Shown here: in pieces, positions 8,556 to 14,177 of the stretch
Layout of the letters: each line of letters begins with the position of its first letter
Position numbering within the stretch: position 1 is the stretch's first letter
Source: Candidatus Helarchaeota archaeon
GTDB taxonomy: Archaea > Asgardarchaeota > Lokiarchaeia > Helarchaeales > RDOG01
Assembly (NCBI GenBank): GCA_019058315.1
Contig: JAHPZH010000002.1
Location: 288,001 to 352,000 of the forward strand
Direction: 5' to 3'
DNA length: 64,000 bases
Notes under the pieces: generated by a model
Databases searched by the model: none
The model's input: the letters and a program-made list of their open reading frames with translations, nothing else
What the model was told of the DNA's origin: nothing
Translations under genes and position numbers: made by a program

Positions 8556-9692
8556 ATGGAAGAAGAAATATTAGGTAAACCGGTAGTAGTTGACAACGGA
8601 ACAGGTATTACCAAAAATGGTTATGCCGGTGAAGACCAACCAAGATCTGTTTTCCCAACGCTTATTGGATATCCCAAATATACATCAATTATGACCGATG
8701 TAGAGCATTACACACGTGAATACTATATTGGGGAAGAAGCATTACAACTCCGTGGTGTTTTAAGACTAAATTATCCTATTGGCCATGGTATAGTAGAAGA
8801 TTGGGGTGCTATGGAAAAAATTTGGCATTATACTTTCTACACTGATTTGAGAATTGACCCTGCAGAGCATCCAGTTCTTTTAACAGAGCCTCCCTTGAAT
8901 CCTAGACCCAATAGAGAAAAAATGTGTGAAATCATGTTTGAGACTTTTAACACTCCTGCCATCTATGTAGCAATGCAAGCAGTTTTATCATTATATGCCT
9001 CCGGTCGTACTACAGGACTTGTATGCGATTCCGGTACTGGTGTAACGCACGTTGTCCCTATTTATGAAGGATTTGCTCTTACACATGCTATCTCAAGATT
9101 GGACCTTGCAGGACGTGATATCACCGAATATTTAATGAGACTCTTGCGCCAAAGAGGTTATTCTTTAACAACTTCTGCTGAGAAAGAAATTGTTAGAGAT
9201 ATTAAAGAAAAACTTTGTTACGTAGCATTAGATCCTGAAAAAGAGCTAAAATTAGCAGAAAAAGTTTCTGGAATGGAAAAATCTTACATGCTTCCTGATG
9301 GTGAAACTCTAACTGTGGGAGTAGAAAGATTCCTTGCACCTGAAGTAGTCTTCAATCCTAGCGCAGTAGGAAAAGAAAGTCCTCCTATGGATGAAGTTAT
9401 CGTCGAAGCAGTTTCTAAATGCGATATCGATTTACGCCGAGACCTATATTCCAATATCGTCCTATCTGGCGGTTCAACTATGTTTCCAGGTCTTAAAGAA
9501 CGCTTAACAAGAGAAATAAGCGAAATGATCCCTGAAAACGTAGAGGTTAAAATTATCGCACCTCCTGAGCGAATGTATTCGGTCTGGATTGGTGGATCGA
9601 TTCTATCCTCGTTAAGAACCTTCCAGAAGATGTGGGTAACTCGTAAAGAATATAAAGAAATTGGTCCATCTGTAATACACAGATGTTTTTAA
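8556..9692 (+). CDS. Asgard actin (conserved Lokiactin type)
   Basis: [77 protein letters not shown]-terminal HRCF; SD-like GGTGA upstream. Confidence 0.97.
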
Positions 9693-9699
9693 TTCAAAA

Positions 9700-9772
9700 T
9701 TTAAAAAACTCTTTTTTTCTTTTTTTAATTTTAATAAAAATTCTTTAAAAAATAAGATTTATTTATAATTAA
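9700..9772. terminator. Oligo-T/A tract between the convergent actin and repeat-protein genes
   Basis: CTTTTTTTCTTTTTTTAA shortly after the actin stop; typical archaeal T-rich terminator. Confidence 0.45.
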
Positions 9773-9774
9773 TA

Positions 9775-12588
9775 TTATAGAAGTTGAGGTCCTTTCTTCT
9801 TTTTTTTCTCTTCCTCTTCAATCTGCTTTTCAACTTTTTTTAGTTTCTTTAAATCTTCTTCTGATAAATCTCGATCTATTTTCAAAAATGTAGGAGCTGC
9901 TTTGGCTTTTTTTAATTCTTCTTCCTTCTCTTTTATTATTAATTGATCTTCAGACAATACAGGACGAAACACAACATCTCCTAAAAGCATCAGAAATTCA
10001 TATAATTCGATTCTTTGCAATCTTTCCTTCTTATATTCTTCTAATTCCGCCTCTTTTTTACGTCCTTCATAAGGTCTTGATGCTAATAATCCCTCTTTTT
10101 GTTCTTCGTGTTTAAGTTTATAAGTTCGGGTCTCACCGGTCTCGTCCATGTATGTCACATAACTTGCTTTATCTTTTGCAGCTTTCTCTTGTAATTCGTC
10201 AAAATAGGACTTAGTTTTTTCTTTCTTAACTTCACCAACTACACCAGATTCCTCCCAATCTTTTTGACGTTCCGAATCCAAATCCTTAAATGAAGGTTCT
10301 TTAACTTTTTTATATTTTCTTTCTACTTTTTTAAATGGTTTATAATCTTCTGCTGCATATCTTGCAGTGTCCTTTAATTCAAGCTTTCTCTTACCTTTTA
10401 ACTCTTCCGGGATATAGTCTTTAGCTTTCTCTCTTGCATCATCCTTCAATTCTAGCTTTCTTTTTCCTTTTAATTCCTCTGGAATGTAATCCATAGCCTT
10501 ATAGCGAGCATCATCCTTTAATTCAAGCTTTCTCTTATAATCTTTATACTCTTCAGGGATGTAATCTTTTATTTCATCCTTATAATCATCAGTTAATTCT
10601 AATTTTCTCTTATATTTTAACTCCTCTGGAATATAATCTTCAGCCTTATAGCGGGCATCGTCCTTCAATTCAAGTTTTTTCTTATATTTTAACTCCTCCG
10701 GGACGTAATCTTCAGCCTTATAGCGAGCATCGTCCGTTAATTCAAGTTTTCTTTTATAATCTTTATATTCTTCAGGAATATAGTCAGTAATTTCTTCCTT
10801 ATAATCCTCCGATAGTTCTAGCTTTCTTTTGTATTTTAGCTCCTCCGGGACATAATCTTCAGCCTTATAGCGAGCATCATCCGTTAATTCAAGCTTTCTT
10901 TTATAATCTTTATATTCTTCAGGAATATAGTCAGTAATTTCTTCCTTATAATCCTCCGATAGTTCTAGCTTTCTTTTGTATTTTAACTCCTCCGGGACAT
11001 AATTCTTAGCTTGATAACGTGCATCATCCGTTAATTCAAGTTTCTTTTTATAATCCTTATATTCTTCAGGAATGTAGTCAGTAATCTCTTCCTTATAATC
11101 CTCAGATAGTTCTAGTTTCCTCTTATAATCTTTATATTCTTCAGGAATATAGTCTTTAATCTCTTCCTTATAATCCTCAGATATTTCCAGTTGTCTCTTA
11201 TACTTTAACTCCTCTGGAACATAATCTTTAGCTTTATAGCGAGCATCGTCTTTTAATTCTAGTTTTCTTTTATAATCTTTATACTCTTTGGGGATGAAAT
11301 CTTTAATTTCCTCTTTGTAATCTTCAGATAATTCAAGCTTTCTTTTATAATCTTTATATTCTTCTGGAATAAAATCCTTTATTTCCGCCTTATAATCCTC
11401 TGAAATCGCTTCTCTCTCTACTTTTTTATAAGGCATAAAATCTTTTATCTCTTTCTTATAATCATCTGTAATTTCTACTTTTTCCTTTTTTGGAACAGGT
11501 TTCCAATCCTTGGCAACAAATCTAGCTGTATCTTCAATTTCCAACTTTTTCTTTGGAACACCTTTTCCCGCTGCTGCATCAAGAATATCCTTACGTTGAG
11601 CATCAATTGTTTTAAAAGTTAAACCAGTTGGAACCTTAATTTTTCCCTTAATTGTTTGTGTTTTATCAGTAATTACTGTTTCATCTTGTTTCCATTGTTC
11701 AGCCATCGTCGCATCTATTTGTTTAAAAGTCGGTCCTGTATCATCCAGAAGTTGTTTCTTCATAGCAGGAGTTTCTTGGGTTGGTAATAGGTCAGATTGC
11801 ACTGTTTCTATTCGTTTATATGTACCTTCTGTATCCTCTAATAGTTCTTTTTTGTGAACAACAGGAGTGACTCCAGGCTGTAATAGAGATTCTTTAGTAC
11901 CAAATTGTTTAACCTCATCTTGAGGATAGGTAACTGGAGTCTGTTGAGCTTTTAATTTTGATTCTATTTCCTCTTCATATTGAAGGAAAGTTGGACTAGT
12001 AGTTTCTTCTATTTTTTGTTTTGGTTGTTCTGTGGGAATTTGATAGTCGATTTGTTTTTCTACTTGTTCATAAGTTGGTATGTATGTTTCAGGTATAGGT
12101 TGTTTTGTTATTTCTGGTTGTTCTATTTGGTTTTGATAACTTATTTGACCTTCTACTTGTTTATATGTTCCTTGATAGAGGGTTTCTTCAGAGGGAGTTT
12201 GACCATATTTGGGTGAAGGTTGGATGGTTTCTGGCATTTGTTCTTCAACAGTTTCATAAGTGGGTCTATAATATTCTTCTTGTTCCACATACGTTTCTGG
12301 AGGTTGAGTTGTTGGATAATCATAAGTTTTTTGTTCCTCTATGGGGGGTTGCTCAACAACAGGTTGCTGAACAGGAGGTTGAGGATAAGTAGCTGTTTCT
12401 TTTTGAGTAATAGCGGGGGGTATTGGTTCCGTCACTTGTGTTTTAGGAATACCTTGTCTACATTGAGGGGAACAAAAATCCCCTTCTATGAAGAAGCACT
12501 TTGAGCACATAAACCCTCCACAAACAGCACATTTATAATTATGTCGAGGGTTTTTTATATTTTTTCCACAACTTGAACAAATCGGCAA
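9775..12588 (-). CDS. 937-aa protein: N-terminal 8-Cys zinc finger, Pro/Gln/Glu-rich linker, tandem-repeat core, charged C-terminus; function unknown
   Basis: Long intact ORF (TTG start); CX2CX12CX2CX4CX2CX7CX3C; in-frame repeats with synonymous variation. Confidence 0.9.
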   Translation of the reverse strand: MPICSSCGKNIKNPRHNYKCAVCGGFMCSKCFFIEGDFCSPQCRQGIPKTQVTEPIPPAITQKETATYPQPPVQQPVVEQPPIEEQKTYDYPTTQPPETYVEQEEYYRPTYETVEEQMPETIQPSPKYGQTPSEETLYQGTYKQVEGQISYQNQIEQPEITKQPIPETYIPTYEQVEKQIDYQIPTEQPKQKIEETTSPTFLQYEEEIESKLKAQQTPVTYPQDEVKQFGTKESLLQPGVTPVVHKKELLEDTEGTYKRIETVQSDLLPTQETPAMKKQLLDDTGPTFKQIDATMAEQWKQDETVITDKTQTIKGKIKVPTGLTFKTIDAQRKDILDAAAGKGVPKKKLEIEDTARFVAKDWKPVPKKEKVEITDDYKKEIKDFMPYKKVEREAISEDYKAEIKDFIPEEYKDYKRKLELSEDYKEEIKDFIPKEYKDYKRKLELKDDARYKAKDYVPEELKYKRQLEISEDYKEEIKDYIPEEYKDYKRKLELSEDYKEEITDYIPEEYKDYKKKLELTDDARYQAKNYVPEELKYKRKLELSEDYKEEITDYIPEEYKDYKRKLELTDDARYKAEDYVPEELKYKRKLELSEDYKEEITDYIPEEYKDYKRKLELTDDARYKAEDYVPEELKYKKKLELKDDARYKAEDYIPEELKYKRKLELTDDYKDEIKDYIPEEYKDYKRKLELKDDARYKAMDYIPEELKGKRKLELKDDAREKAKDYIPEELKGKRKLELKDTARYAAEDYKPFKKVERKYKKVKEPSFKDLDSERQKDWEESGVVGEVKKEKTKSYFDELQEKAAKDKASYVTYMDETGETRTYKLKHEEQKEGLLASRPYEGRKKEAELEEYKKERLQRIELYEFLMLLGDVVFRPVLSEDQLIIKEKEEELKKAKAAPTFLKIDRDLSEEDLKKLKKVEKQIEEEEKKKKKGPQLL
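10333..11554 (-). repeat. Coding tandem repeat of about 17 units of 72/75 bp (24/25 aa), two types, partly arranged as a 147-bp super-repeat
   Basis: Type A KRKLELSEDYKEEITDYIPEEYKDY, type B KRKLELTDDARYKAEDYVPEELKY; near-identical 147-bp copies at about 10700-10990. Confidence 0.95.
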
Positions 12589-13661: not shown

Positions 13662-14177
13662 TTATTTTTCTAAAATCTTATCTGTAAGGAGTCTAAATGC
13701 TTCTTCTACGTTTTCTCCTGAGCTAGCTGAAGTTTCAAAAAAGGGGAGTTTTTTCTTTTCACCATATTCTTTGCCCATATCTTTTGTAACTTTCCGTTCT
13801 TTATCTGCCAAATCCGATTTATTACCTAATAAAACAACTGGAACATCGCCACAATAAGTCCGAAGATTTTCAAGCCAGTCATCTAATTCATTAAAAGTCT
13901 CCTTTCGGGTAATATCATAAACCAGAATTGCTCCTTGAGCTTCAGAGTAGTAGTCTGGACGTATCCATTTGAATTTTATATCCCCTGCAATATCCCAAAT
14001 TTGTAGTAAAACTCTAATATTCTTATCTGGATAGTCTAAATATTTAATAGTGAAGTCTGCACCAATAGTTTTTAAATAAGACTCACTAAATTTTCCAGTA
14101 GTAAAACGTCGAACTAAACTTGTTTTTCCTACTGCTGGTTCTCCAATTGTAACACATTTAAATCCCAAAGTTCTCAT
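13662..14177 (-). CDS. Rab-like small GTPase
   Basis: GEPAVGKTS, TIGADF, WDIAG, NKSD, ETSA; no C-terminal prenylation motif. Confidence 0.93.
   Translation of the reverse strand: MRTLGFKCVTIGEPAVGKTSLVRRFTTGKFSESYLKTIGADFTIKYLDYPDKNIRVLLQIWDIAGDIKFKWIRPDYYSEAQGAILVYDITRKETFNELDDWLENLRTYCGDVPVVLLGNKSDLADKERKVTKDMGKEYGEKKKLPFFETSASSGENVEEAFRLLTDKILEK

Follow-up and report, generated by a model that had tools for sequence, protein, structure and literature searches.

In Asgard archaea, Lokiactin has been described as regulated mainly through profilins and gelsolins (2022 and 2026: PMC9834061, PMC13716822), and the only WH2-like element described in these organisms is a linker inside gelsolins (PMC9433394). 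Herein, we analyzed a 64,000-nt stretch of DNA (G000:C5:288001-352000, the window) from a Helarchaeota genome of 5.8 Mb in 12 contigs, termed G000, in which a Lokiactin-type actin gene lies tail to tail with the gene of a 937-aa zinc-finger, motif and repeat protein, P0001. An earlier note on this DNA had reported the pair and proposed a multivalent filament-binding protein; both open reading frames (ORFs) were present, with their stop codons 82 bp apart. Judged by profile comparison, the motif set of P0001 was shown to be homologous, in order, to the tails of a group of Arp-like fusion proteins. We put the probability at roughly 0.4 that P0001 is a lineage-specific, mostly non-globular multivalent adaptor that docks actin-fold proteins.

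P0001 is built of a finger, about nine copies of short linear motifs, an array of 17 repeats and a family-specific C-terminal module, and the 8-Cys finger, the P/Q/E-rich linker, the 17 repeats and the charged C-terminus were all found as the earlier note had described them. The finger is basic (pI 8.7) and is modeled by AlphaFold2 (AF2) at a predicted local distance difference test score (pLDDT) of 79-88; its cysteines stand at residues 4, 7, 20, 23, 28, 31, 39 and 43, with the spacing CxxC-12-CxxC-4-CxxC-7-CxxxC. The linker (13.5% P, 14% Q, 17% D+E) is predicted to be disordered, with a pLDDT of ~30, and carries five copies of the motif P/G-T-[YF]-x-x-[VIY]-E, at residues 110, 141, 172, 200 and 256. 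Two T-F-K-x-I-D motifs follow in residues 276-348, where the first is continued by an amphipathic helix that contains an invariant Trp (TFKQIDATMAEQWKQDETVI, at 287) and the second is followed by ...AGK..PKKK; helices are predicted by AF2 at residues 288-304 and 325-339. These motifs have the general core P-[TS]-[FY]-x-x-[ILV]-[DE], which in some copies is prolonged by an amphipathic helix bearing F, I, M or W.

The 415-residue repeat array is inserted between this motif cluster and another one. Behind the array, residues 764-897 hold SFKDLD...W.ESGVV (at 766), SYFDEL, a beta-hairpin at 810-824 and helices within 844-897, with a pLDDT of up to 85, and W778, G782, D815, G818, F865, L866, L869, F874 and P876 are invariant among the four members of the P0001 family. 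The C-terminus reads PTFLKID...LSEEDLKKLKKVE...EEEE.KKKKKGPQLL, a motif that P0025, the family member of the G001 lineage (G001 being a same-family relative of G000), does not have. The string EEDLKKLKKVE, taken in the earlier note as the C-terminal end, occupies residues 912-922, and 15 residues remain to the end (...GPQLL). The AF2 model of the whole protein had a mean pLDDT of 47.0 and was confident only in the finger and some C-terminal helices. Comparison of P0001 with NCBIfam and PDB sequences gave chance-level rows only, and a Foldseek search of the model against the PDB returned nothing at E<=0.001.

A search with P0001 against 40 relatives gave two matches, the G001 orthologue and the C-terminal 270 residues of a protein from G005, one of the further genomes compared for actin neighbors (G002-G006). 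This G005 protein (L005:8580-10907, G005:C172) has 775 aa, and its first 380 residues form an actin fold (Pfam Actin, 3.7e-54) that is 31.6% identical to the window actin. A winged helix lies between the actin fold and the tail (residues 410-470, pLDDT ~80, order H-S-H-H-S-S); in the AF2 model built on a 17-row alignment (mean pLDDT 45.9), only this winged helix and the helical Trp motifs were modeled. In a collection of 5.8e9 proteins, 16 have the layout of Arp-like fold, winged helix and tail, and all 16 carry PF00022. The 16 come from Helarchaeota or Promethearchaeota metagenome-assembled genomes and are annotated 'hypothetical protein'. The Arp-like fusion family (P0003 and P0005-P0020), of ~770-940 aa and with a tail end ...KEKEEKLL, includes further members at L053:16-2325 and L054:1498-3843, and may be more interesting than P0001 itself.

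The tails of the Arp-like proteins are composed of a fixed series of elements. They begin with one to eight copies of Y-[VI]-P-[ST]-F-x-R-[LY]-[DE], continue with two to four copies of [YF]-T-F-x-K-I-D-x-E-x(4)-W-x-K-D-x-T-[IV], then with P-S-F...E.W.ESG.V...PKGFF and P-T-F-L-x-I-K...DLLKPK, and finish with an almost invariant end, P-T-F-L-Q...L[TS]EEQL.QIKEFEEEERKKKEKEEKLL, whose Glu/Lys positions and final LL do not vary among the 16 proteins. P0001 has its motif classes in the same order, interrupted by its repeat array. Its five linker copies correspond to the first tail element, with Y-x-P-[ST]-F-x-x-[LY]-[DE] as the common form; its Trp-motif segment aligns with the second, [YF]-T-F-x-K-I-D...W.KD.T[IV], with T12 and W24 invariant; the segment after the array shares P-S-F...E.W.ESG.V...K[GS][FY]F, and the C-termini share P-T-F-L...L[ST]EE.L..[IL]K..E.EEE...KK...LL. 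The Arp-tail proteins differ from P0001 in their N-terminal actin fold and winged helix, and they have no zinc finger, 24/25-aa repeats or beta-hairpin/ELYEFL module, whereas P0001 has no Pfam Actin match.

When the profile of the 16 tails was run against all six-frame ORFs of G000, P0001 was the sole match (4.6e-8), in three collinear pieces covering profile positions 29-150, 54-171 and 201-245 in order; residues 276-348 were matched, positions 54-171 fell on residues 764-897, and positions 201-245 on residues 898-937. An exhaustive search of 1.84e9 representatives with the same profile returned nine proteins only, including P0025 at 4.4e-18. The tail was present in 7/7 genomes of the order and in 0/54 searched from other families of the class. 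Outside the repeats, P0001 contains eight copies of the core [PGL]-[TS]-[FY]-x-x-[ILV]-[DE] against 0.03 expected by shuffling; none of 5000 shuffles gave more than two copies, and no other G000 ORF had more than three. One ORF with three copies, C1:482645-490114, encodes a PAS histidine kinase and was rejected as a chance case because the match lies in the PAS fold.

Through the tail that it has in common with the Arp-like proteins, P0001 is thus linked to the actin family by domain fusion (the Rosetta-stone principle), independently of gene position. G000 and G001, in which the tail is on the zinc-finger protein, have Arp plus winged-helix proteins of 570 and 483 aa without a tail. At 27% identity, it is uncertain whether these are orthologues of the fusion proteins. 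The G000 protein lies at C5:147755-149467 (L063:1256-2968, minus strand) and has a coiled-coil-like end, and its G001 counterpart lies at L065:544-1995. Arp-like proteins of ~510-535 aa in the larger sister family were also considered; they have an inserted zinc-ribbon segment and no tail, and are therefore not related to the module of P0001 and the Arp tails. One of them, of 520 aa (L064:215-1777, G032:C10), has an actin fold interrupted by an insertion that contains two zinc-ribbon-like CxxC...CxxC segments.

A complex was predicted between actin (18-row alignment) and P0001 residues 276-345 (17-row alignment of motif instances), a segment chosen because the Arp tails and every family member have it. 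The pair scored 0.40 (runs 0.38, 0.40 and 0.51), while the best control scored 0.00, as did both control partners and the control receptor, and the verdict was weak support. The runs agreed in at least 36% of contacts, with a partner pLDDT of at least 48. In calibration, the mark was reached by 58/80 solved complexes and 2/110 mismatched pairs; scores of <=0.60 included only 7 of those 80 solved complexes and both passing mismatches. The prediction makes docking to actin modestly more likely and says nothing on affinity.

An orthologue of P0001 was found on a metagenome contig (JGI contig, L061), where the flanking proteins are 69-85% identical to those of G000. P0001 itself is 47% identical to this orthologue, indicating that it evolves fast. 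Against the orthologue, at saturated dS, dN/dS was lowest in the finger (0.04), followed by the C-terminus (0.08), residues 276-348 (0.17) and the linker (0.37); between A-type repeats within the P0001 gene it was ~0.06. Four lineages of the family keep the TTG start and begin with MP.C..CG. P0001 is thus a real gene under purifying selection, beyond what chance would give, and its family is lineage-specific with a narrow, Helarchaeota-type taxonomic range. A scan of metagenome contigs with the family alignment found no relative, and a scan of genome contigs found the G001 contig only. The fourth family member, P0027, has 987 aa and comes from the 'Lokiarchaeota archaeon' EAX96 genome (GCA_011365055.1). 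For the window actin, the best solved match in a PDB sequence search was 'HC1 actin' (9e-192), with eukaryotic actins at ~1e-163. The actin of the JGI contig (L061:12577-13713) is 100% identical to it at the protein level despite a dS of 1.8 and neighbors of 69-85% identity, indicating extreme constraint on Lokiactin.

The G001-lineage orthologue is of a different build. It reads as two ORFs (363/368 aa and 519+/705 aa) with a 4-nt overlap in two separate assemblies (L006:1-2645 and L062:6843-10118), which reflects either a real split or frameshift or an assembly error common to both. It has only ~6 short repeat units and a different long-period repeat (FSPRD..DYIPE plus YRSTAEWLD) before its motifs, and no ...LL C-terminus.

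Table 1. Features of the actin/P0001 region, with positions counted from the first nucleotide of the window
Feature	Position	Strand	Details and basis
Lokiactin-type actin gene	8556-9692	+	378 aa; Pfam Actin E 8.8e-135
AT-rich spacer between convergent stop codons	9693-9774	.	82 bp; sequence reading and bridging contigs
P0001 gene	9775-12588	-	937 aa, TTG start, stop included; ORF calling
P0001 residues 1-46, 8-Cys two-zinc finger	12451-12588	-	Cys pattern, AF2, dN/dS
P0001 residues 47-275, acidic P/Q/E-rich linker with five motif copies	11764-12450	-	composition, AF2
P0001 residues 276-348, two T-F-K-x-I-D motifs, Trp-bearing helix	11545-11763	-	Arp-tail alignment, AF2
P0001 residues 349-763, 17 tandem 24/25-aa repeats	10300-11544	-	Tandem Repeats Finder, AF2, DUF4116 similarity
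P0001 residues 764-897, Trp-type motif, beta-hairpin and two helices	9898-10299	-	tail profile, AF2
P0001 residues 898-937, C-terminal motif	9778-9897	-	tail profile positions 201-245
Winged helix-turn-helix (wHTH)-like gene, divergent from P0001 gene	12979-13647	+	222 aa; conserved neighbor, 4/4 lineages
Ras-family small GTPase gene	13662-14177	-	Pfam Ras 1.5e-50; adjoins wHTH gene

The gene order on the JGI contig equals that of the window, namely Ras-type GTPase, wHTH, P0001 orthologue, convergent actin, M20 peptidase and OTCase. The P0001 gene adjoins actin in G000, on the JGI contig and on ~95%-identical contigs from three runs of another study, which bridge the spacer between the convergent stops. 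Among the public sequencing runs listed as containing the locus, there was no RNA dataset. The divergent wHTH-like gene is the neighbor of the P0001 family in every lineage (49-77% identity); it is single copy in G000 and gave one match in each of the order's seven genomes. It directly precedes actin in G003 and G006, an order with which the contig ends of G005 are also compatible. These two placements of the wHTH gene, upstream of actin and beside the P0001 family, indicate that there is a loose wHTH/actin/P0001 neighborhood, without a conserved actin-P0001 pair. The wHTH-like protein has no Pfam match and is a candidate regulator of this neighborhood. The Ras-family GTPase gene adjoins the wHTH gene not only in G000 but also in G001, on the JGI contig and in the longer G001-lineage assembly L062.

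The earlier note had compared P0001 with eukaryotic actin partners. Nebulin (PF00880) modules are ~35 aa long with a central SDxxYK; the LIM pattern is C-x2-C-x16-23-H-x2-C / C-x2-C-x16-21-C-x2-(C/H/D); FYVE fingers bear the signatures WxxD, R(R/K)HHCR and RVC; and WH2/thymosin beta elements consist of an amphipathic helix followed by LKK[TV] at a fixed spacing. Pfam was scanned with whole P0001 at E<=1 and, at E<=10, with several of its parts, namely the finger, four repeats, and residues 276-345 and 760-937. Like nebulin, LASP and N-RAP, P0001 joins a zinc-binding N-terminus to a long array of short Tyr/Lys-containing repeats, but its units are of 24/25 aa with a Pro in each, its array is acidic, Pfam Nebulin was not matched, and the units are nearer to DUF4116, so the proposed nebulin likeness did not survive. 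The same holds for the finger as a LIM analogue, since its ligands are all Cys with the spacing 2-12-2-4-2-7-3 and residues 1-50 gave no LIM match at E<=10. A FYVE-like finger was equally poorly borne out: FYVE (PF01363) reached 13.5-14 bits against a cut-off of 27.8 (E 0.056-0.08, profile positions 10-39 of 67), and the position of the basic signature reads KNPRHNYKC in P0001. There was a sub-threshold Pfam match to C1_2 at 0.007, and the Foldseek rows for the finger were FYVE-type (1y02, probability 0.80, E 0.57), ZZ and PHD, all with E>0.5 and non-significant. In common with the cross-brace fingers of FYVE, ZZ, PHD, B-box and C1 type, P0001 has eight Cys within 43 residues and the series CxxC-12-CxxC-4-CxxC. 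The finger is best described as a cross-brace-like two-zinc module outside the assigned families.

The C-terminal LKKV, which had been read as WH2, occurs once, is replaced by LKEIE in the orthologue and by IKEFE/IKEIE in the Arp tails, and gave no Pfam WH2 match at E<=10. As judged by eye, the hydrophobic spacing of the C-terminal helix fits neither WH2 nor the Vps4 MIT-binding motif MIM1. A common logic may still be proposed with Spire and Cobl (tandem WH2) and thymosin beta-4, in that several amphipathic-helix motifs in a disordered chain would each take one actin, and Spire likewise has a zinc finger within the same protein. Actin binding by P0001 is predicted, however, and its motif core and invariant Trp are without a counterpart in WH2.

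The 17 repeat units are anchored on D-[YFW]-x-P and fall into types A and B, of 24 aa (LELKDDARYKAEDYIPEELKYKRK) and 25 aa (LELSEDYKEEITDYIPEEYKDYKRK). The region has 12% Tyr, a net charge of -13 and a pI of 5.2, and every unit contains a D-[YF]-[IV]-P kink. Tandem Repeats Finder revealed periods of 72/75 nt and 147 nt at 10370-11400, corresponding to an A/B super-repeat of 49 aa, and AF2 modeled the array as ~20-residue helices interrupted at each Pro (pLDDT 40-60). A 147-bp super-repeat (A plus B unit) is present in three copies of 93% identity at 10685-11119, indicating recent local duplication in an otherwise old array, in which synonymous sites are saturated between units. The count of 17 units is that of the G000 assembly only, because no listed contig of the best-matching run spans 10777-11335. 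The unit of 24.5 aa was also set against actin subunit spacings of 5.5 nm and 2.75 nm; there was no simple integer fit for an all-helical unit, and no conclusion was drawn.

A phmmer search with the array found P0004, P0027 and six Pfam DUF4116 (PF13475) proteins, with E-values of 5e-16 to 8e-5. In composition-adjusted BLASTP, P0001 ran in register with a DUF4116 protein over ~12 units (4e-19) and P0027 aligned to another one at 2e-17, pairwise values that are overstated because the repeat units are not independent. The consensus units, each of 24 aa, are YIPEELKyKRKLELdDDaRy.AkD for P0001 and YVPEELKTkELCllAV.nNGnALr for DUF4116, sharing the core Y-[IV]-P-E-E-L-K-x-K and the 49-aa double unit, and hhalign of the unit profiles gave a probability of 90.8% (E 1.2e-6). 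The Pfam DUF4116 model (cut-off 24.9 bits) had no match in P0001, P0025 or P0027 even at E<=10, whereas P0028 matched at 7e-72. The hydrophobic core of DUF4116 (LC..AV..NG.AL) is charged in P0001, for which AF2 gave no confident solenoid. The P0001 repeats are thus probably distant relatives of DUF4116, or at least of a common unit design, with the hydrophobic core positions charged. DUF4116 repeats are a predicted alpha-solenoid of unknown function (PMC8078820). No solved structure matching DUF4116 was found by sequence, and a feature search of the ESM Atlas with the repeat region gave no usable match.

If P0001 were a nebulin-like ruler or stabilizer, its Tyr-rich repeats would lie along the filament, with the finger as LIM or FYVE and LKKV as WH2; the regular array of 17 units with its 49-aa super-repeat, the purifying selection on the units and the gene's place beside actin in G000 would suit such a protein. 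We nevertheless consider it very improbable, given a period of 24/25 instead of ~35, the conserved Pro kink in each unit, an acidic array (pI 5.2) whose best relation is DUF4116, the absence of Pfam Nebulin, LIM and WH2 matches even at E<=10, an LKKV that neither the orthologue nor the Arp tails conserve, and a G001-lineage member that has ~6 short units and another long repeat and is not beside actin. It is also improbable, though less so, that P0001 is a structural or regulatory protein unrelated to the cytoskeleton, a DUF4116-type solenoid controlled by or acting with the wHTH protein, and that the likeness of its tail reflects low-complexity short linear motifs without a common function. 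Such a protein would account for the strict divergent pairing with wHTH in all family members, for DUF4116-like repeats of a kind found on unrelated bacterial proteins, and for the fast evolution relative to the flanking proteins. It fits poorly with a tail match that is collinear over four motif classes and statistically supported through P0025, with the position of the wHTH gene itself in G003 and G006, immediately upstream of actin, and with a Pfam DUF4116 model that matches no family member.

The adaptor that docks actin-fold proteins is favored because of the fusion link through the Arp tails, the motif enrichment, the complementary distribution of the tail, the actin neighborhood, the complex score and the signs of selection. 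Several observations weigh against it. The tail in common points to a common partner but does not show this to be actin; a weak-class pass in complex prediction is wrong in more cases than not if the complex was not already likely, and amphipathic helices dock easily on actin in models. The AF2 models of P0001 and the Arp-tail protein were poor (mean pLDDT 46-47), and no docking could be read from them. The repeat region and actin both have a net acidic character, and no Nebulin, LIM, WH2, thymosin or RPEL was found in the Pfam scans of P0001 (E<=1 for the whole, E<=10 for segments). Convergent genes are not co-transcribed, and homologues beside Lokiactin, which the earlier note would have expected in other Asgard genomes, were found only in close relatives, in 2/4 lineages and not in the G001 lineage or EAX96. 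The G001 orthologue adjoins the wHTH and GTPase genes while the G001 actin is on another contig with different neighbors; the assembly L062 has a 147-aa ORF and an Arf-like GTPase downstream of the orthologue and no actin; there was no actin within 8 kb of the P0027 gene; and genes other than the P0001 family follow actin in G002-G006. What remains of the multivalent actin-system protein proposed earlier is independent, indirect support from the Arp-tail homology and the weak predicted complex, while the nebulin, WH2 and adjacency arguments are lost. The strongest competitor, unlikely but the least so of the alternatives, is that the tail motifs dock a hub other than actin (for example, membrane-associated, GTPase or ESCRT-type), which recruits Arp plus winged-helix proteins in some lineages and the zinc-finger repeat protein in others, the adjacency to actin being an accident of local synteny. 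The invariant ...KEKEEKLL end resembles a recognition tag, a Ras-family GTPase gene lies beside the wHTH/P0001 pair in three lineages, known actin-binding motifs were not detected, and the conserved neighbor is the wHTH gene (4/4 lineages), whereas actin is next to P0001 in two that are close relatives; yet an actin fold is present in all other carriers of the tail, the complex with actin passed weakly against controls of 0.00, and no candidate hub was identified.

If P0001 is an adaptor for actin-fold proteins, its motifs would be docking sites for Lokiactin or for the tail-less Arp plus winged-helix protein of G000, and a single P0001 molecule could bring together a number of actin-family subunits or serve to tether a filament. 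The finger might serve as a second attachment, to a protein or a membrane, and the repeat array as a spacer between the motif clusters or as a further protein-binding surface. The logic would be that of the tandem-WH2 proteins, achieved with an unrelated motif. A bolder extension, which we regard as doubtful, is that P-[TS]-F-x-x-[IL]-[DE] with the Trp helix is a new Asgard actin-monomer-binding peptide, that the Arp-tail proteins are single-chain nucleators, and that P0001 is a tandem-motif nucleator or crosslinker comparable to Spire and Cobl. If so, an Arp seed with its own monomer-delivering motifs would be a functional analogue of Arp2/3 plus WASP-VCA, and these would be the first such regulators outside eukaryotes beyond profilins and gelsolins.

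A full-text literature search found no paper on the Arp plus winged-helix fusion or on the P0001 motif, and the P0001 family is an undescribed one with a plausible cytoskeletal role. P0001 and the Arp-tail family bear on the question of filament nucleation, anchoring and spacing in Asgard cells. Should the motifs not bind actin-fold proteins, P0001 would reduce to an orphan repeat protein that adjoins actin by chance; should they bind, the closest relatives of eukaryotes would have a lineage-specific layer of actin regulation that evolved independently.

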